From the NCBI GenBank assembly GCA_963816145.1, contig CAWFJP010000004.1, positions 224,001-288,000 of the forward strand: a DNA stretch of 64,000 nucleotides, given 5' to 3'. This DNA comes from an uncultured delta proteobacterium. Its GTDB lineage: Bacteria; Desulfobacterota; Binatia; UBA9968. The notes beneath the pieces are model-generated. The model had not been told where the DNA came from, ran no database searches, and saw nothing but the letters and a program-made list of their open reading frames with translations. The position numbers and the translations under genes were made by a program. This document shows, one piece after another, positions 1-62,286 of this stretch. The stretch's first letter is position 1. The number at the start of each line of letters is the position of its first letter.

Positions 1-496
1 GCCCCGACGCTCCGGTACCGCCACCGCCGCCGGCGACTCCGCTGCCGGCGACCACGCCGGCATCGCCCTTGGCGAAGAGATTGCCGGCGCCGGCGGCGCT
101 GCCCTCCGCTTGAGTGGCTTGCGTGCCGGTGTTCCAGCCGGCTTTGGCCGCGCCGGCGTTATCCGGCAATGCCGCCAGCTGCTGCGGCTCTGCGACCGGT
201 TTTTCTTTGCTGTCTTCTTTGGTGTTGCCGGTCGGCGGCAATGGACTGGTTTCAAAAACCGGCTTGGAAAGCAATTTGGGCGCGGTGAGATTTTGCGGTT
301 TGGGTTTCGGCACCGGTGGCGGCGGTGCGACCTCAACTTTTTGCGGCTGCTCGACCCGCGGCAGCTCGATCAATTCCACCGGCATATTGACGGGCTTGAG
401 CGGTTTGGCGTGCATCACCAGCGCAGCCACGGGAATCAGGCTCAAATGAATTAACGACGAGGCGGTAAACGACGAGATCAGCCCGTGCTCATTCAT
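1..496 (-). CDS. tonB: TonB-family energy transducer, N-terminal part (runs off window start)
   Basis: Manual translation from ATG at 496 (ATGA overlap with exbD stop): MNEHGLISSFTASSLIHLSLIPVAALVMHAKP... TM anchor with SxxxH, then Pro/Lys-rich and Gly/Ala-rich linker; follows exbB-exbD. Confidence 0.8.
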   Translation of the reverse strand, partial: MNEHGLISSFTASSLIHLSLIPVAALVMHAKPLKPVNMPVELIELPRVEQPQKVEVAPPPPVPKPKPQNLTAPKLLSKPVFETSPLPPTGNTKEDSKEKPVAEPQQLAALPDNAGAAKAGWNTGTQATQAEGSAAGAGNLFAKGDAGVVAGSGVAGGGGGTGASG

Positions 497-906
497 TTTC
501 TTTGCTCCTTCGGTTTGACCGCGATCGCCATCTTGGCGACGTTGGCGCCGCGGGCGATATCCATGACTTCGACGACGCGGCCATGCTCGACGCCGTCGTC
601 GGCGTTGATGACAACCAACATCTCGGAGTTTTTCACCAGCTGCTGGCGCAGCGCATCGCCCAGAGCGGTCTTGTCGATCGCCTTTTGGTTAAGAAACAAC
701 CGGCCGTCTTTGTCGATGGTTACCGCCGCGCTCTCGGCCGGCGCCTGCTGACCGGCAGCGGCTTTCGGCAGATTGACCGGCATGCCTTTGAACTGGGTCA
801 TCGACAACGTCGAGATCATAAAAAAGACCAGGAGAAAGAAAATCGTGTCGATCATCGGGATGATCTCGATGCGCGCCTTTTTAATGCTGCGGCGTTGTAT
901 GCGCAT
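493..906 (-). CDS. exbD: Biopolymer transport protein ExbD/TolR
   Basis: IEIIPMIDTIFFLLVFFMI motif; C-terminal ADDGVEHGRVVEVMD. Confidence 0.93.
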   Translation of the reverse strand: MRIQRRSIKKARIEIIPMIDTIFFLLVFFMISTLSMTQFKGMPVNLPKAAAGQQAPAESAAVTIDKDGRLFLNQKAIDKTALGDALRQQLVKNSEMLVVINADDGVEHGRVVEVMDIARGANVAKMAIAVKPKEQRK

Positions 907-1514
907 CAGTGTTTCCCCATGCGCTCATGAAGCAGCAATTCGAGCGAGGAACTGAAGTGCTCCATTCGGTCCATTTCGCGCTCGACCTTCGCCGTGAAGT
1001 AGTTGTAGGAAACCAAGGTGAGAATCGCGATCAGCAAACCGGTGGCGGTGGCGATCAGCGCTTCGGCAACGCCGCCGGTGACCGCATGGGGCTGGCCCAT
1101 GCCGACCTCGGACATGACATCAAAGGAACCGATCATGCCGACCACCGTGCCGAGCAGTCCGAGCAATGGGGCGAGGGTGACGATCGTGTCGAGAACCCCC
1201 AGGCGGCTTTTGAGAATCGGAATTTCGGCCTGCGCCGCCGCTTCCATTGCTTTGGCCGGGGCCGGATTGCGGTGCGCGATGCCGGCAGCGAGGACCCGTG
1301 CAATGGGCTGGATCGACGTCTTGCCTAACTGCAACGCCTGGTCGAATTCGCCCTTGTCGACAAAAGCTAGGATTTGATGCAACGCATCCTTCGATTTTAG
1401 TTTGGTCCAATACAATAAGCGTTCGATTGTCAGGGCGACAGAGATTAGCGAACAAGCGAGGAGCGGAATCATGACGATCCCGCCTTTAACGATGATCGAA
1501 ACAAATGCCGACAT
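906..1514 (-). CDS. exbB: MotA/TolQ/ExbB proton channel protein
   Basis: APLLGLLGTVVGMI and GVAEALIATATGL motifs; start set at ATG 1514 (MSAFVSIIVKGG), not the 1802 ORF-track start. Confidence 0.92.
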   Translation of the reverse strand: MSAFVSIIVKGGIVMIPLLACSLISVALTIERLLYWTKLKSKDALHQILAFVDKGEFDQALQLGKTSIQPIARVLAAGIAHRNPAPAKAMEAAAQAEIPILKSRLGVLDTIVTLAPLLGLLGTVVGMIGSFDVMSEVGMGQPHAVTGGVAEALIATATGLLIAILTLVSYNYFTAKVEREMDRMEHFSSSLELLLHERMGKH

Positions 1515-1516
1515 GA

Positions 1517-1729
1517 CTATTGGACCAATCCTTTCTTGACTTGCTGATGATTGTTCTGCTCGCTGATCTCGGCGTCCTCCGCCACGCTTTGCATGGCGAG
1601 CCCGAGGTCGCGCAGATCGCCTCTCGAGATATGCAGAACGATGTTGCCGTAATGAAAGTGGGCGGTGTCTTGACTGCAATCGCAAAGCGAGACCGACCAC
1701 CCTCCTCCTCGGGATTTGATGCCGTACAT
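1517..1729 (-). CDS. Small hypothetical protein (70 aa) with CxC and HxH residues
   Basis: GGAGG RBS before ATG 1729; SLCDCSQDTAHFHYGNIVLHI; first gene after conserved element copy 1. Confidence 0.7.
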   Translation of the reverse strand: MYGIKSRGGGWSVSLCDCSQDTAHFHYGNIVLHISRGDLRDLGLAMQSVAEDAEISEQNNHQQVKKGLVQ

Positions 1730-1748
1730 TTTGACCTCCGCAAAAATC

Positions 1749-1817
1749 AAAAAGCCCGACGCTCTGCAACATTCGCTGCGAAGCGCCGGGCTCTGGATTC
1801 AAGATCTCTGGCCGCTG
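1749..1817 (-). promoter_or_regulatory. Conserved hexamer-repeat leader plus intrinsic terminator, copy 1
   Basis: Minus strand CAGCGGCCAGAGATCTTGAATCCAGAGCCCGGC...GTCGGGCTTTTT; near-identical copies at 2197-2262 and 4118-4185. Confidence 0.85.
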
Positions 1818-1823
1818 AGTGTG

Positions 1824-1883
1824 TTTGTATATTCAAAGCATAAGTATTTGTCAATACTTATAGCCGATATTTGTATAGACTAA
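1824..1883 (-). promoter_or_regulatory. Sigma70-like promoter with overlapping operator-like palindrome
   Basis: Minus strand TTGACA-17 bp-TATACA; perfect inverted repeat ATAAGTATT-N4-AATACTTAT (1840-1861) covers the -35; TTAG-N6-CAAA box at 1870-1883. Confidence 0.6.
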
Positions 1884-1963
1884 TATTAATTTATAACCTG
1901 CTAAAACTTTGTGTAAATTAACGATGTCTGTGTTCTCAATATCTCTCTTTGTTGTGCCATTAA

Positions 1964-2134
1964 TCACCGAGGATTTTGGTTATGCCGGTGCTCAGGTGAA
2001 ATAGGAATAATGATCTTTCGTTTACACCGGCGACACTTGATTTCGACCCCACCCGGCACTAGACGGGCCAGCAAATTGCCACAGTGACAGCGTAAGAGTT
2101 TAACCTCTGTGCCGTCGACGACTTTATCTTTCAT
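1964..2134 (-). CDS. Com-like Cys4 zinc-ribbon protein, paralog B (56 aa, below ORF-track cutoff)
   Basis: Manual translation: MKDKVVDGTEVKLLRCHCGNLLARLVPGGVEIKCRRCKRKIIIPISPEHRHNQNPR; RCxCGxLL...EIKCxRCKR pattern resembles phage Mu Com; paralog at 4216-4407. Confidence 0.8.
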   Translation of the reverse strand: MKDKVVDGTEVKLLRCHCGNLLARLVPGGVEIKCRRCKRKIIIPISPEHRHNQNPR

Positions 2135-2196
2135 TGGCGGTTTGACTCAGTTGACAGATAGCGCTTCGACAAGACATGGCATTTATTTTCTTCTCC

Positions 2197-2262
2197 AAAA
2201 AAAGAGCCCGGAATCGCATGTAACGCGATGCCGGGCTCTGGGTTCTCGACCTCTGGCCGCTC
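2197..2262 (-). promoter_or_regulatory. Conserved hexamer-repeat leader plus intrinsic terminator, copy 2
   Basis: Minus strand GAGCGGCCAGAGGTCGAGAACCCAGAGCCCGGCATCGCGTTACATGCGATTCCGGGCTCTTTTTTT. Confidence 0.85.
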
Positions 2263-2386
2263 GTCCGTTTACCGTTATGAAACTGTTAGTGTTGGTCGAC
2301 TCTAACTGTTCTCTAAAAAATTCGGGCCACAAAACTCCACTGCTCCAATTCGATTTGGCTATCGCGAGCCGAGATCGACATGGCCA

Positions 2387-3238
2387 TTACCAAAACCAGC
2401 TCGATTCTGACGAGGGACCGAACAGCGCGCAAACGAAATTCTCAAGCTCTAGATTGAACTTGATGATGACCGGATCCGAGCCGTGGGTCAGACCGAAACC
2501 GGCGCCAATATTGTACTCGATACCATGCGGCAGCTCGCCCCGGATGACCGGAAAGATGTAATGTTGCTGCTCCGCTCTTGGGTCGGTGTCGTTGATGTTG
2601 CCGATACCGCCGAAAAACTCGACACCCGGCGAAATCGACCGCATCCAGCGATAATAAATTCCCGAGGCGTAGCCGAATTCGAATCCTTTGTTCTTGTCTG
2701 GGCCGACCAATACTTTTTCAAAGATGGGATTAACCATCAAGGAAAGGCTGCCGAAGTCTTTTTGAATAATCGGGCGCAATTCCAGTTCTAGTTTCTGATC
2801 GTCGAATTGCGGTACACGGTTGTATCCCAATTCAATGTACCAACCGAGATCGATGGGCAGCTGCCCTTGATCGAACAGGCTGCCGCGCACTCTGAACTTT
2901 GAGCCGGCATATTGCAGGTCACGACCGTTGGGCTTGGCGATATTCACGTACGCCGCCGCTTCGATGCGATCGGAAAGCCCGTAGGTTGCCTCCAAAGCGG
3001 TGCGCCACATCGATTGGCTGGGTAAGGTGCCGCCTGAAGTTCCCTTGTCGCCCTGGGTGAAGCCATTGGCGACAACGCTATTTAGCCACTCAAGTTCAAG
3101 AACACCGCGCCCGAGCGTGCGGTACGGATAAACTTCAAATTCCCAGGGATCGACCTGCGCGGCGCCACAACCGGGGCGTAACAAATCTGCCAGGACGATG
3201 AGGCACGCTAAGGTTATCGATCGTAAATAAGTGTTCAT
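2387..3238 (-). CDS. Putative outer-membrane beta-barrel protein
   Basis: Signal peptide; alternating aromatic/Gly beta-strand pattern; operonic with cupredoxin and haem protein. Confidence 0.65.
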   Translation of the reverse strand: MNTYLRSITLACLIVLADLLRPGCGAAQVDPWEFEVYPYRTLGRGVLELEWLNSVVANGFTQGDKGTSGGTLPSQSMWRTALEATYGLSDRIEAAAYVNIAKPNGRDLQYAGSKFRVRGSLFDQGQLPIDLGWYIELGYNRVPQFDDQKLELELRPIIQKDFGSLSLMVNPIFEKVLVGPDKNKGFEFGYASGIYYRWMRSISPGVEFFGGIGNINDTDPRAEQQHYIFPVIRGELPHGIEYNIGAGFGLTHGSDPVIIKFNLELENFVCALFGPSSESSWFW

Positions 3239-3744
3239 TGTGAATGCTCCTTAGTTGTATTGGAACTTTGTTGGGATCGTTGGCTTGCTAACTCCGATTC
3301 GATCCACTGTAGTAACAGCAGCAGATCTGTTTGGTTTAGCGCTGCTTGAGGGTGCAGTATGCGGTAACTCCACGGCGGCATGTTTTCTTGACGCAAGGTG
3401 CGATCGATCCACTGAAGTTTGCGTAACTTTGTCGTCAGGTAATAGGAACCCCATTCGGAGAAGTTCAGCTGTTTGCGCCCCAACCCGACGTCCCGTTCCA
3501 ACCACCAAGAGAATGGCGCGACGTAGCCGTACCATGGCCAGCGGGTTTCATTGGAGTGGCAGTCGTAACAGGAGCGTATGAGAATAGCCGCAATTTTCGG
3601 TGGCGCTGCAGCGTCGTCACGTGTAGGAGGATCTTCATGGCGAATCCCGCGCGATAGTCCGACCATGGTAAGTCCGGCGACTGCGAGGAGCGCCGCGACG
3701 TGCTGCTTGTTTATTTTCACCGGCCGTCGATCTCCTATACCCAT
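3235..3744 (-). CDS. Haem-binding domain protein (c-type cytochrome)
   Basis: N-terminal hydrophobic segment; SCYDCHSNETRWPWY (CxxCH) and distal MPP. Confidence 0.85.
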   Translation of the reverse strand: MGIGDRRPVKINKQHVAALLAVAGLTMVGLSRGIRHEDPPTRDDAAAPPKIAAILIRSCYDCHSNETRWPWYGYVAPFSWWLERDVGLGRKQLNFSEWGSYYLTTKLRKLQWIDRTLRQENMPPWSYRILHPQAALNQTDLLLLLQWIESELASQRSQQSSNTTKEHSQ

Positions 3745-3750
3745 GAGTTT

Positions 3751-4089
3751 TTATTTGGCCGTGATCGTTCCTTCGGGAACATCCTGGTGAAAATCGTCGT
3801 AAATGTCATAACTGCCGGGCCGCAAAGCCGGTACGAGTACGATCACCGACTCACCGGGGCCAACGACCTTCTCACGGTTGAGCTTGAAGCTTTCGAATTC
3901 GATGGCTTCTTTGCTGCTGTTGGTGATTTTAATCTTAAACGGTTGATTCGCCGGGACGGTGATCGTTTGCGGAATAAAGCGGCGATTCTCGAAGCGCAAC
4001 TCGACCACCGCGTCGTCGGCTTGGGCGCGCCTTGCTAACGCGATGGCAAAGAGGAAAAGCAGGGTAATTGTAATCCTCGAATGCTTCAT
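3751..4089 (-). CDS. Periplasmic cupredoxin-domain protein (EfeO-N/FtrB-like)
   Basis: Signal peptide; EFES..LNREKVV and PGSYDIYDDFH motifs. Confidence 0.85.
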   Translation of the reverse strand: MKHSRITITLLFLFAIALARRAQADDAVVELRFENRRFIPQTITVPANQPFKIKITNSSKEAIEFESFKLNREKVVGPGESVIVLVPALRPGSYDIYDDFHQDVPEGTITAK

Positions 4090-4117
4090 CTAGTTCTCTC
4101 CTTGGCTATTAAAAAGC

Positions 4118-4185
4118 AAAAAGCCCGGTTACCGCCGTTGTCTGTGCGGAACGCCGGGCTCTGGGTTCAAGACCTCTGGCCGCTG
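4118..4185 (-). promoter_or_regulatory. Conserved hexamer-repeat leader plus intrinsic terminator, copy 3
   Basis: Minus strand CAGCGGCCAGAGGTCTTGAACCCAGAGCCCGGC...CCGGGCTTTTTGCTTTTT, 30 nt after the Com-like gene A stop and upstream of the cupredoxin RBS. Confidence 0.85.
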
Positions 4186-4215
4186 AATTAGATTTATCAA
4201 CGTTCTCAATGATGG

Positions 4216-4407
4216 TTACATATCGATCCTGACAGTGCCCTTGGTGGCGAAAGGTACGACCACTTGGCGCTTACAGCGGCGGCATTTGAGTTCGACGCCG
4301 TCGGCGACCACCCGGGCTAACAAGCTGCCACAGCTGCATCGCAGCGAGTTGTCTGGCTTTGTTGCCGCCGCTATCTCGCGGTTCTTTTGTTGTAGTCGTG
4401 AATCCAA
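4216..4407 (-). CDS. Com-like Cys4 zinc-ribbon protein, paralog A
   Basis: LRCSCGSLLARVVADGVELKCRRCKRQVVVPF; probable TTG start at 4407 directly after the FTR1 stop (start uncertain). Confidence 0.8.
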   Translation of the reverse strand: MDSRLQQKNREIAAATKPDNSLRCSCGSLLARVVADGVELKCRRCKRQVVVPFATKGTVRIDM

Positions 4408-4408
4408 T

Positions 4409-6391
4409 TTACTTCGCTTTCTTGCGCTGACGGGCCAGCCAAAAGGACGTAGCGACGAAGGCAAAAAGCATCAATCCTTGAGCCGCCAGGGTTTCAACGG
4501 TCGGATGGATGCCGAGCAAGGGGATCGCGTGCGGCACGCTCGTCGGTGTGGTGGAGATCCACTGGGCGGCTTGTAATTCTTTGACGCCGTTGCCGGCGAA
4601 GATAAACGCCATGATATAGAGCAGCGTTCCAGTGGCGCTCAAGAAATATTTGATCGGAAGTTTGAGCCCGAGCTTTAAAATCGCAAAGGTCGCGACCCCC
4701 AATAACCCGAGCCCGAGCGCCAGGCCCCAAATAATCGAGCCGTGACTATCCTCATTTTGCATCCACAGCGCTTGATAAAACAGCACCAGTTCGAAGGCCT
4801 CGCGATAGACGGCGAAAAACGAGATGCCGATAAGTCCGAAGATGCGCTGGGTCGATATTCCCGATTTTACTTTCTGTTCGATGAACTCATGCCAGCGTTT
4901 GACTTCCGAGCGGGTGTGCAGCCAGTAGCCGACATAGAAAAGCGCCACGGCCGCGAAGACGGATATGAATCCTTCCATGCTTTCGCGGTGGCGACCGCTG
5001 AGCGTGAGCACGGTTTGCGTCGCTACCCAGGTCAATCCGCCGCAGAAGAGCGCGAGAATCCAACCGAGATGAATGTAGCGGATCGCTTCGGTTGCGCCCA
5101 TGACGCGCAACATGCCGATGATGCTGGCCAGGATCAGTGCCGCTTCGAGTCCTTCGCGAAAGATGATCAAGGCTGAATTCGCGAAGGCATAATAGCCCGA
5201 GTAGCCGTCGTCGCGCGCCATTGCCTGGGTGGCGCGATCGAGTTGCACTTCGATTTCTACATGCTGTTTTTGAATTTCTTCCGCCGGCGCGCCTTGCTTG
5301 ATGCTGTTGCGCAGCTGGGTAAATTGCGCTTCCAGACCGCGTCCCAAGCTCGCATCTTTGGCGACTAGTGTTGGTTCGGCAAGTTCATAGCCGTCAAGAT
5401 ACGCTTCAACGGCTTTTTGATAGGCCTGATCTTTTTCCCCTTTGGCATAAAGCGCGACGGCTTCGCGCAGAAGTCCCTTGGCAACTGAAAGGGGATCGGA
5501 CAGCGAGGCTTCCAACATGCCGCGGCGCAGGTAGGCAAGCGCTGCCAGCGCCTGAGACTCGTCTTTGGTCTGTTGTTGGAGCCGGTCCAACAGCACTTCG
5601 TCGGCGCTGGTCGCCAGGGTTGCAACCGTTTGCAATTCGCCGGGCAAGCCTTTCGCCTTGACCATCTGCGCGCCGGTTTTGGCCGCTTCGTCGGTGAATC
5701 GCAGAGAAAATACGTAGAATGCGACCTGCCAGCGTTGCTCTTCGCTAAGGGCGGCAAACGATGCCATGGCCGTGCCCTCGATGCCGAAGCTCGCGGTGTT
5801 AAATACTTTGAACGGCGACAGGCCGCCGATGCGCTCGGGATCGGTGAAGTTGGCCGGCAGCGGCGTTTTGGGTTTCATGCTTTCGCGGCCTGGGCCGTCG
5901 CCTTTGCCGGTGGCGCCATGGCATTGCGCGCAATTGTCGTCGTAGATTTTCTTGCCGCTCGCCATGGACGGCAAGCGGCGCGGGTAGGGGACGATATTGT
6001 AGGCCGCCAGCAGTTTTTCTTTGGTTGCCTTGGCAGTTTCGGCGACCGCTTTGGGATCGGCTTTGTCCGTCACCTGCTGCGCCAGGGATTTTACCAAGGC
6101 TTCGACGCCGGCTTTATCGCCTTTGTCAGCGGCTTTGAGCTGGGCGAATAATTCCAAACCGCGCTTGGCGAATTCTTGCATTTCGCCGTACTCGTCCGGG
6201 TTCAAGACTTTGCCGTCTTTGACGGCATTTTTGTAATCGCTGCCCAGGTAGTCGAGCAGCGCGACCAGCTTCTTGGCCTGTTCTTGCGCCAATACCGGAG
6301 CCGCGGCGAAGAGTAGTAGCCATATCGCTAAGAATGAGGCGGTGATCTTGCTACTCGTGAAAGCGCGTCGTTGGGAAATCCCGTTGGTCAT
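4409..6391 (-). CDS. Cytochrome c / FTR1-family iron permease fusion (PbrT/EfeU-like)
   Basis: Signal peptide; CAQCHG haem motif; two RExxE motifs (FREGLEA, YREAFE) in the C-terminal multi-TM domain. Confidence 0.92.
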   Translation of the reverse strand: MTNGISQRRAFTSSKITASFLAIWLLLFAAAPVLAQEQAKKLVALLDYLGSDYKNAVKDGKVLNPDEYGEMQEFAKRGLELFAQLKAADKGDKAGVEALVKSLAQQVTDKADPKAVAETAKATKEKLLAAYNIVPYPRRLPSMASGKKIYDDNCAQCHGATGKGDGPGRESMKPKTPLPANFTDPERIGGLSPFKVFNTASFGIEGTAMASFAALSEEQRWQVAFYVFSLRFTDEAAKTGAQMVKAKGLPGELQTVATLATSADEVLLDRLQQQTKDESQALAALAYLRRGMLEASLSDPLSVAKGLLREAVALYAKGEKDQAYQKAVEAYLDGYELAEPTLVAKDASLGRGLEAQFTQLRNSIKQGAPAEEIQKQHVEIEVQLDRATQAMARDDGYSGYYAFANSALIIFREGLEAALILASIIGMLRVMGATEAIRYIHLGWILALFCGGLTWVATQTVLTLSGRHRESMEGFISVFAAVALFYVGYWLHTRSEVKRWHEFIEQKVKSGISTQRIFGLIGISFFAVYREAFELVLFYQALWMQNEDSHGSIIWGLALGLGLLGVATFAILKLGLKLPIKYFLSATGTLLYIMAFIFAGNGVKELQAAQWISTTPTSVPHAIPLLGIHPTVETLAAQGLMLFAFVATSFWLARQRKKAK

Positions 6392-6394
6392 TGG

Positions 6395-7162
6395 CTAGCT
6401 TCCTTGAGTCGATAGTAGAAAACGTTTTCTCAGCCAGGCGCTGATGCCGTCCATCATCAAGACGATCACCAGAACTAGTAGCAGCACGGTGGCTAGCCGA
6501 CGATAATCGAGATTCTGCAGATAGATTTGAATCACCAAACCGAGACCGCCGGCGCCGACAAATCCGAGAACCGACGAGGCGCGGATGTTGTATTCGAGCA
6601 TGAACAGCACCTGGGCGAGGATCGCATTGGCGGTTTCCGGGATAATCACAAAGCGCACCAGTTGCAGCTTCGATGCACCGGTGCTCTGCACCGCTTCGAT
6701 GATTTCCGGATCGGTGCCTTCGAACAGGTCGGCGTAGATTTTCGCCAGGTAGCCGACCGTATAGGCGGCAATACCGAAGGTGCCGGCCAGCGGTCCGAGG
6801 CCGACCAGAATGACGAAGACGATCGCCCACAGCAGCACCGGAATGGTGCGTATGCCAGCGGCGATGAATCTGGCCAAGCTCGAGAGCCAATCTGAAAAAA
6901 GTCGGCGCGTGCCGAGCACGCTCAAAGGCAGCGAAGCGATGAAACCCAAGAGCGTTCCGGCAAAGGACATTTCGACGGTTTCCCATAGCGCGGCGCCGGC
7001 GGTGGGCAGGATACTCATGTCGGGCGGCACCATTTCGCCGCCGAGAATCCTCAGGTTGCGAAAGCCGCGCGCTAAACGCTCGCCATCGAAGAGCCCTAAA
7101 TGGGCCAGGGTCGCAAGCAGGAACAAACCGACGGTGAGCGGCAAAAAGAATTTCGGCATCAC
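6395..7162 (-). CDS. phnE: PhnE/PtxC-like ABC permease
   Basis: EAA-like loop (IIEAVQSTGASK); LEYNIRASSVLGFVGAGGLG signature. Confidence 0.85.
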   Translation of the reverse strand: MMPKFFLPLTVGLFLLATLAHLGLFDGERLARGFRNLRILGGEMVPPDMSILPTAGAALWETVEMSFAGTLLGFIASLPLSVLGTRRLFSDWLSSLARFIAAGIRTIPVLLWAIVFVILVGLGPLAGTFGIAAYTVGYLAKIYADLFEGTDPEIIEAVQSTGASKLQLVRFVIIPETANAILAQVLFMLEYNIRASSVLGFVGAGGLGLVIQIYLQNLDYRRLATVLLLVLVIVLMMDGISAWLRKRFLLSTQGS

Positions 7163-7890
7163 GCGGTTGCCTCAGCCGGCTCGGTTTCAAGATACTCGCT
7201 GCCGATGTAGCCCTTGCCGATCGCGCCGTCTTTCATGGCGAGCACTTCTTCGCCGAACTTCCGCGCCAGACCGAGGCGGTGCATGCTCATGATGAATGTG
7301 ATGTTTTCTGTCTCGGCAGCGGCGCGGATACGGCCGAGAATCTCGTAGGCCAAAGTGAGATCGAGATCCGAGGCGAACTCGTCGGCGATGACGATGCGCG
7401 GCCGCTGCAATAGCGTGCGCGCGATGGCGACCCGTTGACGCTCGCCGCCGCTCAGCTGGAATACCCGATTGTTGCTCTTGTGGTCGATACCCATCATGGC
7501 GAGCGCCGCATGGGCGGCGTCGATCTCCGCGCGCGGAAATATGCCGAATAGAGTTTGGGCATCGCCAAGCCGGCCGAGCGCGCCCATCAGCACGTTGTCG
7601 AGGGCGGAGAGATTGCGCACCAGACCCAATTGTTGCGGAATGTAACCAATCAGCGAGCTCAAATTTCGCCGGCTGCCGCCTTCCAGGGGTTGGCCGAACA
7701 CGGCAATTTTCCCGCGGCTTGGCGGCAATATTCCCGCCATGACACGCAGCAATGTGGTCTTGCCGGTTCCCGAAGGACCCATGATCACCGTGTGCTTGCC
7801 GGCGGGAATCGACAGCGAGACATTGCGCAGGACGGGCTCGTGGCGCGGATAGGAAAACCAAACCTGGTCTGCGTGCAATGCCGTAACCAT
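7159..7890 (-). CDS. phnC: PhnC-like ABC ATPase
   Basis: Walker A GPSGTGKT; LSGGERQRVAIAR; IADE. Confidence 0.85.
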   Translation of the reverse strand: MVTALHADQVWFSYPRHEPVLRNVSLSIPAGKHTVIMGPSGTGKTTLLRVMAGILPPSRGKIAVFGQPLEGGSRRNLSSLIGYIPQQLGLVRNLSALDNVLMGALGRLGDAQTLFGIFPRAEIDAAHAALAMMGIDHKSNNRVFQLSGGERQRVAIARTLLQRPRIVIADEFASDLDLTLAYEILGRIRAAAETENITFIMSMHRLGLARKFGEEVLAMKDGAIGKGYIGSEYLETEPAEATA

Positions 7891-7904
7891 ATATGCGCTG
7901 TCGC

Positions 7905-8852
7905 CTACAATCGCTCGGTGAACTTCAAGTTGGCGAGCTTTAAATATTTCGTTAGCCCGGCCAGATGCTCCTGCGCCGTGGTCGGCTTGAAACCGACGAA
8001 AATACTCGAAATAAACGTGCGCATGAGATCGCGATGTTCCGGTGCGCCGAGCTTGATCACGCTCTGGATCGTCCGGGAGCGCAGAGGTTCTTTGAACTCG
8101 CGGCTGAGCACGACGGCGTGGGAGGGGATCGGCCCTTGATCCTCGATGGAGCGTGTGCCGGCGAGGACTTCGTTATAGAGCTTCTCGGGCACGTCGCCGG
8201 CGATGATTGTGGTATCGACTTGGCCCTGTTTGAGCGCCTGCCAGCACTGGCCATAACCGCCGCCGAACAGCACTTCCTTAAAGAAGGATTTAGGGTCGGC
8301 TTCCTTGCCTTCGCCGGGTTGGAGCAGGTTCAGCTCAACCATCCGGCCCATGGGCGCGACGAATCCGGAAGTGGAAATTGGGCTGGGAAAGCACGCCGAC
8401 TTGCCTTTCAGCGATGCCAAATCTTTGTAAGGTGAGTCGGGATTGACCACCCAGTAGGAATAATAATACGGAGCGTCGACTTTTTCTTTGCCGTGGAGTA
8501 CTTGGCGCACCTCGGCCAACGCTACCTCGGCGCCGCCAAGGCGGACTGCCAACTGAGCCGGCCAGGCTGACATGAAGGCGACCTGCGCATGGCCAAAGCG
8601 CAGCGATTCCACCACCGCGGCGAAGCTGGTTGGCACATAGAGCTCCACTTTGGTTTTGCCGCCGAGGCTTTGTTCGAGAAATTTTTGCAGTGGCTTGGCT
8701 TTGTTGAGCATCTCATCGCTGGCCACTGTCGGTTGGATCGCGATGACGAGTTTTCCTTGAGCACGTGCCGGTTCGGAGAAAGCTATCAACAGCCAAAACA
8801 ATGCCGAAAATGTTCCCCGGATGATTCCTAGATTATTGGCGTTTAACATCAA
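7905..8852 (-). CDS. PhnD/PtxB-like (phosphate/phosphite/phosphonate family) ABC substrate-binding protein
   Basis: Signal peptide; AVVESLRFGHAQVAF and STSGFVAP motifs; substrate not determinable from sequence. Confidence 0.8.
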   Translation of the reverse strand: MMLNANNLGIIRGTFSALFWLLIAFSEPARAQGKLVIAIQPTVASDEMLNKAKPLQKFLEQSLGGKTKVELYVPTSFAAVVESLRFGHAQVAFMSAWPAQLAVRLGGAEVALAEVRQVLHGKEKVDAPYYYSYWVVNPDSPYKDLASLKGKSACFPSPISTSGFVAPMGRMVELNLLQPGEGKEADPKSFFKEVLFGGGYGQCWQALKQGQVDTTIIAGDVPEKLYNEVLAGTRSIEDQGPIPSHAVVLSREFKEPLRSRTIQSVIKLGAPEHRDLMRTFISSIFVGFKPTTAQEHLAGLTKYLKLANLKFTERL

Positions 8853-8910
8853 TGAAGGCTCCCTTGATCTCTTGTCGCAACTTGATTATTAAGGTGGCAG
8901 GCAAGATTTA

Positions 8911-8973
8911 GTTTAGACGTAAAACAAATTCATGCTTCGCCATCCAAAATACTTATTCTTCGTATAGTCGAAG
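8911..8973. promoter_or_regulatory. Candidate DtxR/MntR-type operator in divergent promoter
   Basis: Palindrome CTTCG-TATAGT-CGAAG (8958-8973); further TTMG half-sites at 8913 and 8936. Confidence 0.5.
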
Positions 8974-8993
8974 CTAGAAAGTTTGTCAAATCT

Positions 8994-9659
8994 ATGGAAG
9001 AAATTAAAGTCACCCATGCGTTAGAAGATTATCTCAAGGCTATTTATGTACTTATGGAAGACGGGCAGCCGGTTATAGCCGCCCGGATGGCTGCCGAGGC
9101 CGGGGTTTCGGCATCGACGATCTTCGCCACGGTTCGGCGGTTAGAAAAAGATGGCTACGTGACGATCAATCGGCGCAAAGAAATTCATTTGACCAGTGAG
9201 GGTAAGAAGATTGCGGAACGAACGATTCGGCGCCATTTCCTGACCGAGCGGTTTCTGACCGATCTGTTGGGACTGGATTGGGTCAAGGCGCATCAGGAAG
9301 CGCACCGTCTGGAACATGCGATTTCCCAAGAAGTTGAAGAGCGCTTGGCGAAATTGCTAAATAATCCGCTGACCTGTCCCCACGGCAATCGCATTCCCGG
9401 GGCTGCTACAGGCAACCTGAGCAAGACTACGCCACTCAATGACGCCAACGACGGCCAAACCGTCGAGCTCGATTTCATTACCGAAGGCGGCGAACGCGAC
9501 GTGCGCCTATTAAGTTACTTACAGGAGCATGGTCTGGTCCCGGGGGCGAAGGTGTTGGTCGTCGACGTCGCGCCGTCCCTCGGCATGATGACGCTCAAGG
9601 TCGGCGATGACCAGTTTTCTTTGGGCATCGAGGCGGCTAAAAAAATCCGCGTGCACTAA
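8994..9659 (+). CDS. DtxR/MntR/IdeR-family metal-dependent repressor with FeoA-like C-terminal domain
   Basis: EDYLKAIY; RRHFLTERFL; AHQEAHRLEHAIS; CPHGNRIP. Confidence 0.93.
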   Translation: MEEIKVTHALEDYLKAIYVLMEDGQPVIAARMAAEAGVSASTIFATVRRLEKDGYVTINRRKEIHLTSEGKKIAERTIRRHFLTERFLTDLLGLDWVKAHQEAHRLEHAISQEVEERLAKLLNNPLTCPHGNRIPGAATGNLSKTTPLNDANDGQTVELDFITEGGERDVRLLSYLQEHGLVPGAKVLVVDVAPSLGMMTLKVGDDQFSLGIEAAKKIRVH

Positions 9660-47478: not shown

Positions 47479-47555
47479 CGGGGCGTAGCGCAGCCTGGTA
47501 GCGCACCTGCCTTGGGCGCAGGGGGTCGGAAGTTCGAATCTTCTCGCCCCGACCA
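47479..47555 (+). tRNA. tRNA-Pro(TGG)
   Basis: Cloverleaf; anticodon arm CCTGC-CTTGGGC-GCAGG; CCA end. Confidence 0.95.
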
Positions 47556-47569
47556 ACGAACAATGGTAT

Positions 47570-47640
47570 GTGCTGAGCTATGAGTACTGAGTAATGTGGG
47601 GCGGAGGGGAAATTCCCCTCAGTACTCAGGACTCGTACTC
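47570..47640. repeat. Inverted arrays of short TGAGTAC-like units forming a hairpin
   Basis: TGCTGAG-CTATGAG-TACTGAG ... CTCAGTA-CTCAGGA-CTCGTACTC between tRNA genes. Confidence 0.5.
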
Positions 47641-47646
47641 GATTGG

Positions 47647-47723
47647 GCGCCAGTAGCTCAGCTGGATAGAGCAACGGCCTTCTAAGCCGTAGGTCAGGGG
47701 TTCGAATCCCTTCTGGCGCGCCA
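47647..47723 (+). tRNA. tRNA-Arg(TCT)
   Basis: Anticodon arm ACGGC-CTTCTAA-GCCGT; CCA end. Confidence 0.95.
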
Positions 47724-47734
47724 GACTGTTTTGC

Positions 47735-47812
47735 GGTGAGTGTAGCTCAATTGGTTAGAGCACTGGATTGTGGTTCCAGGGGTTGAGGGTTCAAGTCCCT
47801 TCACTCACCCCA
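47735..47812 (+). tRNA. tRNA-His(GTG)
   Basis: Anticodon arm CTGGA-TTGTGGT-TCCAG; G-1; CCA end. Confidence 0.95.
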
Positions 47813-47897
47813 GTTTGAAATCGGTGAATATCGAGGGTCGAGCATAGGTAACTGCAATCCGCGATCTTCCATTTTTCACGTTTAGTTTTATCCGTGC

Positions 47898-47973
<76 letters not shown>

Positions 47974-49246: not shown

Positions 49247-49329
49247 GCGAGAGTGGCGGAATTGGCAGACGCACTAGACTTAGGATCTAGCGGGCAACCG
49301 TGGGGGTTCGAGTCCCCCCTCTCGCACCA
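49247..49329 (+). tRNA. tRNA-Leu(TAG)
   Basis: Anticodon arm CTAGA-CTTAGGA-TCTAG; variable arm; CCA end. Confidence 0.95.
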
Positions 49330-55479: not shown

Positions 55480-55554
55480 GGGCGGTTAGCTCAGTGGGAG
55501 AGCATCGGCCTTACAAGCCGGGGGTCACAGGTTCAAGCCCTGTACCGCCCACCA
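55480..55554 (+). tRNA. tRNA-Val(TAC)
   Basis: Anticodon arm TCGGC-CTTACAA-GCCGG; CCA end. Confidence 0.95.
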
Positions 55555-55581
55555 ATTAAGTTTGTGTTGTTTGGATAAATC

Positions 55582-55658
55582 GGGGTCGTAGTTCAGTCGG
55601 TTAGAACGCCGGCCTGTCACGCCGGAGGTCGCGAGTTCGAGTCTCGTCGGCCCCGCCA
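55582..55658 (+). tRNA. tRNA-Asp(GTC)
   Basis: Anticodon arm CCGGC-CTGTCAC-GCCGG; CCA end. Confidence 0.95.
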
Positions 55659-60284: not shown

Positions 60285-60359
60285 GCTGGCGTAGCTCAAC
60301 GGTAGAGCAGCTGATTTGTAATCAGCAGGTTGTAGGTTCAAGTCCTATCGCCAGCTCCA
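60285..60359 (+). tRNA. tRNA-Thr(TGT)
   Basis: Anticodon arm GCTGA-TTTGTAA-TCAGC; CCA end. Confidence 0.95.
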
Positions 60360-60415
60360 GCTAATCCATTTAGGAAAGTTGGCGCGGCGAGAAATTTGTT
60401 TCTGGGGGGAGTCGA

Positions 60416-60500
<85 letters not shown>

Positions 60501-60505
60501 ATTTT

Positions 60506-60581
60506 GCGGGAATAGCTCAGTTGGTAGAGCGCAAGCCTTCCAAGCTTGGGGTCGCGGGTTCGAGTCCCGTTTCCCGCTCCA
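60506..60581 (+). tRNA. tRNA-Gly(TCC)
   Basis: Anticodon arm CAAGC-CTTCCAA-GCTTG; CCA end. Confidence 0.95.
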
Positions 60582-60666
60582 TATTGGTTAGTGGCGGATG
60601 GCATTTTGCCTGGCCGGTCTCTCGCCCCGATGGTGGGCACCGTGGCCAACAGCCATCGACCGACAT

Positions 60667-60739
60667 GCCCAGGTAGCTCAGTCGGTAGAGCACGTCCTTG
60701 GTAAGGACGAGGTCAGCGGTTCAATCCCGCTCCTGGGCT
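60667..60739 (+). tRNA. tRNA-Thr(GGT)
   Basis: Anticodon arm CGTCC-TTGGTAA-GGACG; CCA not encoded. Confidence 0.93.
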
Positions 60740-62209: not shown

Positions 62210-62286
62210 GGGTCAGTAGCTCCAATTGGTAGAGCGCCGGACTCCAAATCCGGTTGTTGCAGGTTCGAGTCCTGCCTGACCCGCCA
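62210..62286 (+). tRNA. tRNA-Trp(CCA)
   Basis: Anticodon arm CCGGA-CTCCAAA-TCCGG; CCA end. Confidence 0.95.

Follow-up and report, generated by a model that had tools for sequence, protein, structure and literature searches.

A conserved leader RNA and a Com-like zinc-ribbon protein point to an undescribed protein-operated switch in iron-uptake operons of a Binatia genome

An RNA element and a small zinc-ribbon gene that accompany each other in an iron-uptake region of a Binatia genome point to an undescribed genetic switch operated by a protein. The window analysed here, a 64-kb stretch of that genome, contains three copies of the element, which is genuine and is selected at the RNA level. 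With moderate confidence, we propose that the Com-like protein binds the leader and opens a terminator or a hairpin sequestering the ribosome-binding site, by which the downstream genes would be switched on. The protein and its matching RNA site form a compact and portable cassette on the chromosomes of at least six phyla, with about 1,500 sequence clusters at 50% identity.

Leader elements in the window

The near-invariant element of about 30 nt reads AG(C/A)GGCCAG(A/C)G-G(G/A)UC-NNGA-A(C/U)C-CAGAGCCC, and its 3' end is the 5' arm of a variable, covarying GC-rich hairpin, behind which lie a U tract and then a gene with its ribosome-binding site. The hexamer CTCTGG on the plus strand, which is CCAGAG in the RNA, occurs twice per copy, and the two motifs flank a covarying 3-bp hairpin with a CNNGA loop. 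The initial annotation had described three such hexamer arrays, and they proved to be real: a degenerate pattern matched the 64-kb window exactly three times (plus-strand coordinates 1785-1816, 2230-2261 and 4153-4184) and matched 100 dinucleotide-preserving shuffles of the window 0 times. An unfiltered covariance-model search of the entire window recovered copy 1 (67.3 bits), copy 2 (66.9 bits) and copy 3 (73.6 bits; E 3e-18) and nothing else. Scanning the 7.8-Mb genome with the pattern gave one further copy beyond these three, namely copy 4 (G000:C4:217033-217063), about 7 kb left of the window and on the same strand as copies 1-3, and the reversed-pattern control gave 0 matches over the whole genome.

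Together with their terminators, copy 1 (1745..1821) stands at the 5' end of an operon of a small ORF, exbB, exbD and a tonB-like gene, copy 2 (2197..2266) upstream of Com-like gene 1, and copy 3 (4114..4189, U tract at about 4111-4122) between Com-like gene 2 and a cupredoxin gene. All of them are oriented like the neighbouring genes, every one on the minus strand, and no copies in the opposite orientation were found. The alignment bears out the annotated 2-5 differing positions between copies in the conserved stretch of ~33 nt. From copy to copy, the interiors of the hairpins show no sequence relationship and yet each of them pairs, as had also been noticed, with strong predicted folds for copy 1 (MFE -37.3 kcal/mol; z = -3.9 vs shuffles), copy 2 (-34.8 kcal/mol; z = -4.1) and copy 3 (-28.1 kcal/mol; z = -2.4). 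All three window copies have the GC-rich hairpin with an immediate U tract that defines an intrinsic terminator, although a simple terminator scan missed these three hairpins owing to its loop-size rule; the ferritin-type copy 4 has no U tract. A start codon follows each terminator, as annotated, 12-66 nt past the U tract (ATG at 1729, 2134 and 4089).

Genes and promoter around the leaders

One gene of the region is a cytochrome c-FTR1 iron permease fusion (4409..6391, minus strand; Pfam FTR1 and Cytochrom_C, NCBIfam EfeU/Ftr1). Com-like gene 2 (4216..4407, minus strand; 63 aa if TTG at 4407 is the start) lies immediately downstream of it, starting one base past its stop codon and ending 34 nt before copy 3. 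It is a paralogue of gene 1 by tblastn, and the same 63-aa open frame is present in relatives. Downstream of copy 3, also on the minus strand, are a cupredoxin-like gene (3751-4089; Pfam Cupredoxin_1), a gene for a haem-binding domain protein (3235-3744; Pfam Haem_bd) and one for a 283-aa secreted protein matching no Pfam family (2387-3238). Com-like gene 1 (1964..2134, minus strand), which follows copy 2, encodes 56 aa with cysteines arranged as CxC...CxxC, and copy 2 is possibly an autoregulatory site for this gene. Contigs of metatranscriptome X1 match 1908-2117 (Com-like gene 1) identically and 3120-3303 nearly so; being contigs only, these data are blind to transcript ends, strand and level, may include DNA carry-over, and give no meaning to the uncovered parts.

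Directly upstream of copy 1 is a putative promoter, TTGACA-17 nt-TATACA (1826..1861, minus strand), of which both the -35 and the -10 are kept in 10 of 10 orthologous leaders. The palindrome ATAAGTATTGACAAATACTTAT, with its core at 1842-1859, overlaps this promoter-like sequence; its recurrence in the window does not exceed chance, with 3 matches at no more than 3 mismatches and as many in 13 of 100 shuffles. Copy 1 is followed on the minus strand by a conserved 70-aa ORF (1517-1729), ExbB (906-1517; Pfam MotA_ExbB), ExbD (493-906; Pfam ExbD) and a proline-rich ORF (2-496) which runs off the window and is labelled TonB-like from its position and composition.

Covariation

The homologous stems covary, which the initial annotation had set beforehand as the result to look for. 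In 70 distinct homologues, some of them from related genomes and so non-independent samples, pair 9-17 of the small hairpin is G-C in 49, A-U in 12, G-U in 9 and unpaired in 0, and 95.7% of the cells are paired vs 15-61% with the partners slid. The same 70 homologues contain two pairs at the terminator base with 11 and 10 double changes. Among 103 unique metagenome elements, which were collected with a pattern that permitted A-C at pair 9-17, this pair is G-C in 45, A-U in 31, G-U in 27 and A-C in 0. The covariation supports a helix of 3 bp only, and the GGC/GCC pairs never vary; because the homologues were collected with an exact pattern, the invariance at fixed positions is partly by construction. 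Single-sequence folding had offered an alternative small hairpin, GGCC/GGUC, which was rejected since position 9 covaries with 17 and not with 3. Besides, six 3-mismatch pattern hits in relatives (L005, L006, L009, L012, L014 and L016), which had no hairpin or lay inside coding sequence, were dropped as false positives before counting.

Distribution and downstream genes

In an exact-pattern scan, the element turned out to be present in Binatia, Chloroflexota, Myxococcota, Nitrospirota, Bdellovibrionota and others and hence is not lineage-specific, with about 27 nt kept nearly identical in at least six phyla. Behind it, within tens of nt, come a ribosome-binding site and a start codon, and the element, which always has the orientation of the gene so close behind it, is cis-acting. 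A simple test for a U tract and 3' arm was passed by 85 of the 103 metagenome elements. In three leaders (L092, L040 and L063), there is no terminator, and the predicted pairing partners of the element are the ribosome-binding site and start codon. The ferritin-type leaders, which have no U tract and a predicted pairing with the ferritin start region, may work differently.

The downstream genes are often involved in iron handling, such as FTR1, cupredoxin, ferritin, FeoA, multicopper oxidase and ExbB/D. Those of Chloroflexota, such as DUF6125 and acyl-CoA dehydrogenase, are not obviously iron-related, so the module is no iron device as such. In Chloroflexota, only 3-22 nt separate the element from the end of an upstream ORF; a promoter would hardly fit there, so that ORF and element are probably co-transcribed.

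Association of the element with a Com-like gene

In about 70% of cases, a gene for a four-cysteine zinc ribbon of 55-65 aa ends 3-170 nt upstream of the element on the same strand. For the 70 unique elements, 48 have the end of a zinc-ribbon ORF no more than 300 nt upstream on the same strand (median gap about 33 nt), and in 2 more the ORF runs into the element (50 of 70 in total); 0 have such an ORF beside them on the opposite strand. The metagenome replicate, limited to the 84 elements for which 300 nt or more of sequence lay upstream, gave an adjacent zinc-ribbon ORF for 60 and an opposite-strand one for 0. About 30% of elements have no adjacent Com-like gene, and the 5 genomes searched for this reason all encode one elsewhere.

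The two parts also occur together genome by genome. Among 61 relatives, 21 have a strong RNA match (E < 1e-10), and the protein (E < 1e-17) is present in 21 of these 21; 34 of the 61 have neither. One relative (G027) has the protein and a degenerate element only, and another (G008) is the sole relative with an element-like sequence, itself degenerate, and no Com-like gene. An unrelated Chloroflexota class, represented by 121 genomes, has strong RNA matches in 2 of them and the protein in exactly those 2. Comparing the paralogue type of the protein with RNA positions 0, 7 and 9/17 gave only trends, which are confounded by phylogeny.

A candidate for the trans factor of the leader can thus be named, the Com-like zinc-ribbon protein, because of the gene adjacency, the genome-by-genome co-occurrence and the likeness of the element to the Com RNA motif (PMC6483171). 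The initial reading of the elements as protein-binding antitermination sites rather than a repeat gains support, at the level of sequence, from the covariation, the orientation and this adjacency and co-occurrence of the Com-like gene.

Identity of the Com-like protein

Com has been regarded as a peculiarity of Mu-like phages, with a single lethal gene under its control. Judged by its sequence, the zinc-ribbon protein is a distant relative of phage Mu Com. The product of Com-like gene 1 matches PHROG gpCom (E 4e-4), and 11 of its 29 homologues carry the JGI label "phage FluMu protein Com". In the family of 32 sequences, 25 match phrog_13819, "gpCom control of modification" (best E 8.5e-5), and 25 match phrog_6417, "translational regulator" (best E 7.3e-5). 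C16, C18, C34 and C37 are invariant in the 32 sequences, forming two cysteine pairs about 16 residues apart, and AlphaFold2 predicts a three-stranded ribbon for the product of gene 1 (core pLDDT about 89). Tandem fusions of two zinc-ribbon units occur in 15 of the best 150 family representatives, which fits a two-part RNA site.

General searches returned less. Pfam PF10122 (Zn_ribbon_Com) matches 3 of the 32 members, the best at E 0.032 and so short of the threshold, and matches neither Com-like protein of the window even at E up to 10; NCBIfam and Pfam gave nothing for the small ORFs of the window. We found no tblastn match of Com-like protein 1 in 50,697 phage records, and a profile search of PDB sequences gave one chance-level match (E 0.17). 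Searching PDB and viral structures with the AlphaFold2 model in Foldseek gave nothing at E <= 0.001, which is uninformative because the protein is too small.

Proposed mechanism

We infer that the Com-like protein binds the leader and that binding activates, the sign being drawn from geometry only. Each element would be a cis-acting leader RNA, or attenuator, with the Com-like protein encoded next to it as the trans factor. The RNA would offer two CCAG(A/C)G motifs on either side of the 3-bp hairpin with its CNNGA loop, of which the second would double as the bottom of the 5' arm of the terminator; in some genomes, the hairpin would bury the ribosome-binding site and start codon rather than terminate. 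When the protein is absent, the hairpin would form and transcription would stop or translation be blocked. Binding of one or two zinc-ribbon units to the motifs of the nascent RNA would keep the hairpin from closing at its base, and the downstream genes would be expressed. The logic would be that by which Mu Com opens the translation-inhibition structure of mom, applied mainly to termination in cellular operons.

In the Binatia genome, the module would gate a ferritin/Dps-like gene as well as an iron-uptake supra-operon, the latter at three stages. The first stage would run from FTR1-cytochrome c through a Com-like gene and a leader to the cupredoxin, haem-binding and secreted proteins, the second from a leader to a Com-like gene, and the third from a promoter through a leader to exbB-exbD-tonB-like. 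The iron signal would enter via the promoters rather than via the Com-like protein.

If this is confirmed, the protein would be a new family on the short list of RNA-binding antiterminators and the element a new RNA motif for Rfam, and a 60-aa protein with a 30-nt RNA part might serve as an orthogonal switch. It would also explain staged expression along long iron-acquisition operons in uncultured soil and sediment lineages, such as Binatia.

Comparison with known systems

Mu Com is described as an activator of translation whose binding site, CC(N)2-3GAG, lies in the loop of a hairpin beside an inhibitory structure, and its SELEX motif as bipartite, on both sides of a stem of 3-4 bp, with GA and the first loop C of the RNA protected by the protein (PMC6483171). 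The designed binder derived from this SELEX, RNA I, CGAGAACCAGAGAGUUCCGG in that source (PMC6483171), nearly matches CGAGAACCCAGAGCCCGG of copy 2. In both systems, the gene directly upstream of the controlled one encodes a small zinc-finger protein with four cysteines, CC...GAG motifs lie in or around a very short hairpin, and this hairpin abuts an inhibitory one thought to be opened by binding; as in mom, the start codon is buried in some homologous leaders.

There are also differences. The zinc ligands of Mu Com are Cys6, 9, 26 and 29 (PMC3299994), so that its first cysteine pair is CxxC and ours CxC, the spacing being close otherwise. The target here has one spacer base (CC-A-GAG), and the motif reported in PMC6483171 has two or three. 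The context here is chromosomal and outside prophages, in iron uptake, ferritin, and TetR- or Fur-linked operons. Unlike in mom, most of the inhibitory hairpins here are intrinsic terminators with a U tract, which would make control transcriptional. Finally, there are several target sites per genome, some of them far from the protein gene, where action would be in trans.

RNA-binding antiterminators are represented by BglG/SacY/LicT with RAT, the ANTAR proteins AmiR/NasR/EutV, and HutP, which are often encoded in the same operon; their sites are conserved RNAs of about 30 nt that overlap the 5' arm of a terminator, and the bound protein prevents termination. The element studied here resembles them in its length of about 30 nt, in overlapping the 5' arm of the terminator and in the candidate regulator often being in the same operon. 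It differs in that the Com-like protein, a zinc ribbon of about 60 aa, has a fold unrelated to the CAT, ANTAR and HutP domains and carries no sensor domain or known partner. A term search of a 2025 review of such antiterminators gave no match to the word "zinc" (PMC12591593). RNA-level control of metal homeostasis genes is shared with the czcD/NiCo and yybP-ykoY riboswitches and with the small RNAs RyhB, PrrF and FsrA, but no model matched. Next to those riboswitch aptamers, the element is much smaller and has less structure, and it is cis-linked to its genes, unlike those small RNAs. The PyrR binding loop (Rfam RF00515) has a core sequence of the CCAGAG type. It differs in structure, gene context and neighbouring protein, and gave no Rfam match at E up to 10 over 1500-4500.

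Alternative explanations

It is unlikely, in our judgement, that the Com-like protein binds the element with some other outcome, such as termination or repression, 3'-end autoregulation, or an effect on RNA stability or processing. The element usually lies 3-35 nt past the Com-like stop codon and so is also the 3' UTR and terminator of that gene, while its position ahead of a Com-like gene at copy 2, L047 and L110 suggests feedback; the ferritin-type leaders, pairing with the start region and lacking the U tract, would suit such an outcome too. However, in terminator and ribosome-binding-site variants alike, the base of the inhibitory hairpin shares nucleotides with the second motif, so that occupancy there should open and not close the hairpin, and Mu Com, the only studied relative, is described as activating by melting the adjacent structure (PMC6483171).

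Decidedly unlikely is a small riboswitch with direct sensing of an ion or metabolite, such as Fe2+ or another metal, and with the Com-like gene a mere frequent neighbour or co-regulated. It would account for the near-invariance of about 27 nt across at least six phyla, for the occurrence of both terminator and ribosome-binding-site platforms, as in riboswitch classes, and for the many iron-handling genes downstream, and in two minimum-energy folds a possible GGC/GCC helix closes off a symmetric CAGA/CAGA internal loop. But this helix is invariant and covariation backs the 3-bp one only, and the Chloroflexota targets include no metal genes. The tight RNA-protein co-occurrence (21 of 21 and 2 of 2) argues against a self-sufficient riboswitch, and the lone relative with an element-like sequence minus the Com-like gene has a degenerate copy. 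No Rfam riboswitch model matches, either: with Rfam 15 at the gathering threshold, 12 tRNAs and nothing else pass in the whole window, and at E up to 10 over 1500-4500 the best score is at most 19 bits, which is at chance level, vs thresholds of 40-70.

We give little credence to the Com-like protein being itself the metal sensor, with a four-cysteine site that gains or loses Fe(II) or Zn(II) and one form binding the leader. If so, it would be a bacterial protein-RNA iron switch acting on termination, a functional analogue of the eukaryotic IRP/IRE, in which a two-part cassette of protein gene and RNA site spread horizontally and was re-used for other regulons, such as TetR-linked operons in Chloroflexota.

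Very improbable is that the elements are genes for paralogous trans-acting small RNAs with a 5' seed and a Rho-independent terminator, iron-sparing like RyhB or PrrF. The conserved promoter of copy 1 and its orthologues would start an RNA about 5-8 nt before the element, giving a predicted transcript of about 75 nt that ends at the terminator for copy 1; a conserved 5' part with a variable terminator is typical of small-RNA paralogues, and Rfam RybB aligns weakly to the copy 1 terminator (16 bits, far below the threshold of 40). Most copies, however, lie 3-35 nt after an ORF, too close for a promoter, and each is always followed in its own orientation by a ribosome-binding site and gene; where the terminator is missing, the element is predicted to pair with the ribosome-binding site downstream of it.

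A dispersed repeat (REP- or MITE-like), or terminators alike through recent duplication, might be suggested by four copies inside 12 kb of one genome, but this is already contradicted by the copy number (just four in 7.8 Mb), the single orientation, the cross-phylum conservation with compensatory changes, and the unrelated hairpin interiors, by which the copies are no recent duplicates.

Gene layout around the elements

All genes in positions 1-9000 of the window lie on the minus strand, and the RNA sense of the finding is therefore that of the minus strand. With families assigned by Pfam and NCBIfam, these genes begin with a PhnD-like binding protein (7905-8852), an ABC ATPase (7159-7890), a permease (6395-7162) and a fusion of cytochrome c and FTR1 iron permease (4409-6391). 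They are followed, still from right to left, by a small zinc-ribbon ORF (Com-like gene 2, 4216-4407) and element copy 3, then by genes for a cupredoxin-like protein (3751-4089), a haem-binding-domain protein (3235-3744) and a secreted protein of 283 aa without family (2387-3238). Next come element copy 2 and the other small zinc-ribbon ORF (Com-like gene 1, 1964-2134). Between this ORF and element copy 1 lies a promoter-like stretch rich in AT, and copy 1 is followed by a conserved ORF of 70 aa (1517-1729), exbB, exbD and, last, a TonB-like ORF rich in proline. The gene of a DtxR-family regulator (8994-9659) is divergent to the minus-strand genes.

The apparent start of Com-like gene 2 is a TTG one base past the TAA stop of the FTR1-cytochrome c gene (4405-4411), which suggests translational coupling. 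The 70-aa ORF between leader copy 1 and exbB reads MYGIKSR...SLCDCSQDTAHFHYG... and occupies the same position in many Binatia loci; neither Pfam nor NCBIfam has a family for it, and in a protein atlas it groups with hypothetical proteins only, mostly Binatota.

Sequence and structure of the element

A degenerate pattern for the element, a conserved leader RNA with a downstream hairpin, found exactly 3 copies in the window vs 0 in 100 shuffles; this genome has one more (copy 4), which lies 7 kb further left and precedes a ferritin/Dps-like gene. Alignment of copies 1-3 gives mutual differences at 2-5 of about 33 positions, the same figure as in the initial annotation. The terminator interiors had been described there as unrelated yet paired, and they are indeed dissimilar in sequence while all three hairpins fold strongly (-37.3, -34.8 and -28.1 kcal/mol for copies 1, 2 and 3; z = -3.9, -4.1 and -2.4). 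On the 3' side of each window hairpin there is a U tract, then a ribosome-binding site, then a start codon. The consensus RNA, AG(C/A)GGCCAG(A/C)G-G(G/A)UC-NNGA-A(C/U)C-CAGAGCCC(G/A)G, contains a 3-bp hairpin with a CNNGA loop between two CCAG(A/C)G hexamers, the second of which extends into the terminator's 5' arm (pairing of AGCCCGG with CCGGGCU). The element has no match in Rfam.

The ferritin-type leaders (L004 1345-1537, minus strand, and homologues in loci L029, L038, L058 and L060) are without a U tract and have an extra CCAGCG-like motif (UGCCAGCGC) downstream of the hairpin. The consensus fold of copy 4 and its four homologues pairs the 5' half of the element with the first codons of the ferritin/Dps-like gene; no covariation was found in these 5 sequences, so this pairing is regarded as a lead only.

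Covariation was evaluated in 70 distinct sequences (alignment A2), after six false positives had been taken out; the locus of the unpublished genome G005 is represented by the identical public L036. It turned out that homologous stems do covary, in agreement with the structural conservation initially proposed: pair 9-17 of the small hairpin is G-C in 49 sequences, A-U in 12, G-U in 9 and unpaired in 0, and two pairs at the terminator base carry 11 and 10 double changes. Paired cells amount to 95.7% vs 90.8% in shuffles, the observed value being reached by 0 of 500 shuffles, and to 15-61% with the 3' partners shifted 1-3 columns. Invariance at most other positions is partly by construction, because the collecting pattern fixes them. 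In an independent set of metagenome elements, whose search pattern permitted A-C at pair 9-17, this pair is G-C in 45, A-U in 31, G-U in 27 and A-C in 0 among the matches listed. A competing GGCC/GGUC hairpin from single-sequence folding is not supported, as covariation links position 9 to 17 rather than to 3.

The neighbouring ORF encodes a Com-like protein

The ORF next to the element encodes a Com-like protein. The JGI name "phage FluMu protein Com" is found on 11 of 29 close homologues, and a PHROGs search with the 32 aligned members gave matches for 25 of them, to "gpCom control of modification" and to "translational regulator" (best E about 1e-4). Just 3 of the 32 match Pfam Zn_ribbon_Com, at E >= 0.032, so the proteins stand outside that curated family. 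Four cysteines are invariant in the aligned proteins; their spacing is close to that of Cys6/9/26/29 of Mu Com in the available portion of PMC3299994, except that the first pair here is CxC. The AlphaFold2 model is a ribbon of three strands (core pLDDT about 89), and fold searches with it were uninformative. In a library clustered at 50% identity, the family includes 1,497 representatives at E <= 1e-3 and 752 at E <= 1e-10, and 15 of the best 150 of the 1,497 are tandem fusions of two zinc-ribbon units. Natural tandem fusions such as P0030-P0037, P0042 and P0046 have 99-199 aa. The two small ORFs of the window are paralogues with the core RCxCGxLLARhxxxGVEhKCRRCKRxhhhP.

By tblastn and motif scan, a Com-like ORF directly precedes the element, in the same orientation, in all the phyla. 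It ends within 300 nt upstream of 48 of the 70 unique elements, runs into the element in 2 more and lies 666 and 749 nt upstream in another 2, while an ORF on the opposite strand occurs in 0 of 70. The median gap is about 33 nt (3-22 nt in Chloroflexota). Among the metagenome matches listed, 84 elements come with 300 nt or more of sequence upstream; 60 of these have an adjacent ORF, and 0 have it on the opposite strand.

We also compared 61 genomes of relatives, which are not independent samples. Strong covariance-model matches (E < 1e-10) exist in 21 genomes, including the unpublished G005, and the protein (E < 1e-17) is present in 21 of 21. The others comprise one with the protein followed by a degenerate element (G027), 3 with weak RNA matches only, 2 with weak or broken protein matches only and 34 with neither. 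One of the weak RNA matches, in G008 (99% complete), is a visibly decayed element (L105 777-843; CCAACG for CCAGAG, CCUAGAG for CCCAGAG) in a genome with no Com-like gene, and looks like a relic after protein loss. For the 121 genomes of a Chloroflexota class, strong RNA matches were found in 2, and the protein in exactly those 2. In five genomes with an element but no ORF next to it, the ORF is present elsewhere in all five, and a divergent element adjoins 3 of their 6 protein loci.

In L047 (Bdellovibrionota; 2303-2389 and 2574-2708, plus strand), Com-like genes flank one element on both sides, and window copy 2 also precedes a Com-like gene, which suggests autoregulatory loops. In two Chloroflexota loci, L035 (1660-2466, plus strand) and L045 (1697-2467, plus strand), a TetR-family open frame continues in another frame over the entire Com-like ORF and ends just before the element; it may be a chance open frame in GC-rich DNA, a real gene overlap or an assembly frameshift.

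Resemblance to the Com target of phage Mu

Nowacka et al. (2019, PMC6483171) report that the hairpin bound by Com is short and lies beside the structure that inhibits mom translation, which Com presumably melts. SELEX yielded CC(N)2-3GAG / GAG(N)2CC, mostly bipartite and flanking a 3-4-bp stem; protection was seen at the GA dinucleotide and at the first cytosine of the loop, and the designed binder "RNA I" is CGAGAACCAGAGAGUUCCGG. Likewise, the element has CCAGAG motifs flanking a 3-bp stem with the loop C-N-N-G-A, although its motif spacer is one base, and spacer and exact placement differ from the motif published there. The stretch of window copy 2 for comparison with RNA I is CGAGAACCCAGAGCCCGG. 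The element RNA thus resembles the known Com target, and binding here is predicted.

Distribution across bacteria

With 3 mismatches allowed, the pattern occurs in the majority of genomes from this genus and family and was not found in the two sister families sampled. The exact-pattern scan of one genome per GTDB species gave 63 loci, whose record titles, with taxon names as labelled by depositors, are Binatia, Dehalococcoidia, Anaerolineae, Thermoflexus, Chloroflexia, Myxococcota, Nitrospira, Bdellovibrionota, Omnitrophota, Thermodesulfobacteriota, Verrucomicrobiia and "delta"/"Proteobacteria". In nearly all matches, a variable hairpin closing with (C/U)GGGCU is followed by a U-rich tract, a ribosome-binding site and a gene. 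Metagenomes contain at least 124 element loci and at least 103 unique elements.

Predicted mode of regulation

The second CCAGAG overlaps the lowest terminator-stem pairs, and its A-G-A pairs with the U tract in minimum-energy folds; because of this overlap, a protein bound to the motifs should block the hairpin part most important for termination. In a minority of genomes, the 3' half of the element is predicted to pair with the ribosome-binding site and start codon, for example in L092 (AGAGCC with GGCUCU), L040, and L063 (GAACCC with GGGUUC), the same arrangement as in mom of phage Mu. Both designs predict that binding turns the genes on; to a protein that binds with the opposite sign, or for autoregulation or stability control, we assign a small probability. 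A protein-independent riboswitch would fit the invariance across phyla and the dual expression platforms, but its almost perfect dependence on the presence of the protein gene and the near absence of covarying structure speak against it, and its probability is small as well. Trans-acting small RNAs are unlikely, since most copies begin 3-35 nt past the stop codon of a preceding ORF and are linked to the ribosome-binding site that follows them. Copy number, orientation and compensatory change exclude a dispersed repeat, the reading that the initial annotation had already disfavoured.

As for the signal under activation by the Com-like protein, orthologues of copy 1 share a conserved TTGACA-17-TATAC(A/G) promoter, predicted to place the 5' end of the RNA a few bases ahead of the element, with AT-rich repeats upstream. 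A perfect 22-bp palindrome at 1840-1861, ATAAGTATTGACAAATACTTAT, covers the -35 of the copy 1 promoter-like site and does not recur elsewhere in the window beyond chance. It is likely an operator for a metal-dependent repressor; a DtxR-family gene is present at 8994-9659. Regulator genes preceding the Com-like gene are of the TetR family in four Chloroflexota loci and of the Fur family in one from Myxococcota; in another locus the gene encodes a sigma-54 response regulator. Downstream genes include FTR1, cupredoxin, ferritin, FeoA and multicopper oxidase; porin / FMN-binding / ApbE sets, DUF6662, DUF4198, HD-domain protein and ExbB/D; and, in Chloroflexota, DUF6125 with acyl-CoA dehydrogenase. 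From this spread, the cassette is not iron-specific. Most simply, the promoters would carry the signal (iron in this genome), and the protein-RNA pair would add a threshold, or a gate that keeps expression tightly off, between the regulatory part of operons and their distal part, by analogy with Mu Com at the toxic mom gene. It is also possible that the four-cysteine site is a direct metal sensor.

Novelty and expression

In a full-text literature search, no description was found of a chromosomal Com-like protein paired with a leader/terminator or tied to iron genes, and a term search of the available text of a 2025 review of RNA-binding antiterminators (PMC12591593) did not return the word "zinc". 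The Com/inhibitory-hairpin principle is already known; its proposed widespread cellular use as attenuator appears to be new, and the RNA motif is absent from Rfam.

At contig level, which shows no transcript ends or levels, one RNA library (metatranscriptome, contigs only) contains contigs identical to 1908-2117 (Com-like gene 1) and nearly identical to 3120-3303. Besides, Rfam identifies twelve tRNA genes on the plus strand of the window, in several tight clusters spanning 15 kb (47479-47970, 49247-49326, 55480-55655, 60285-60739 and 62210-62283).
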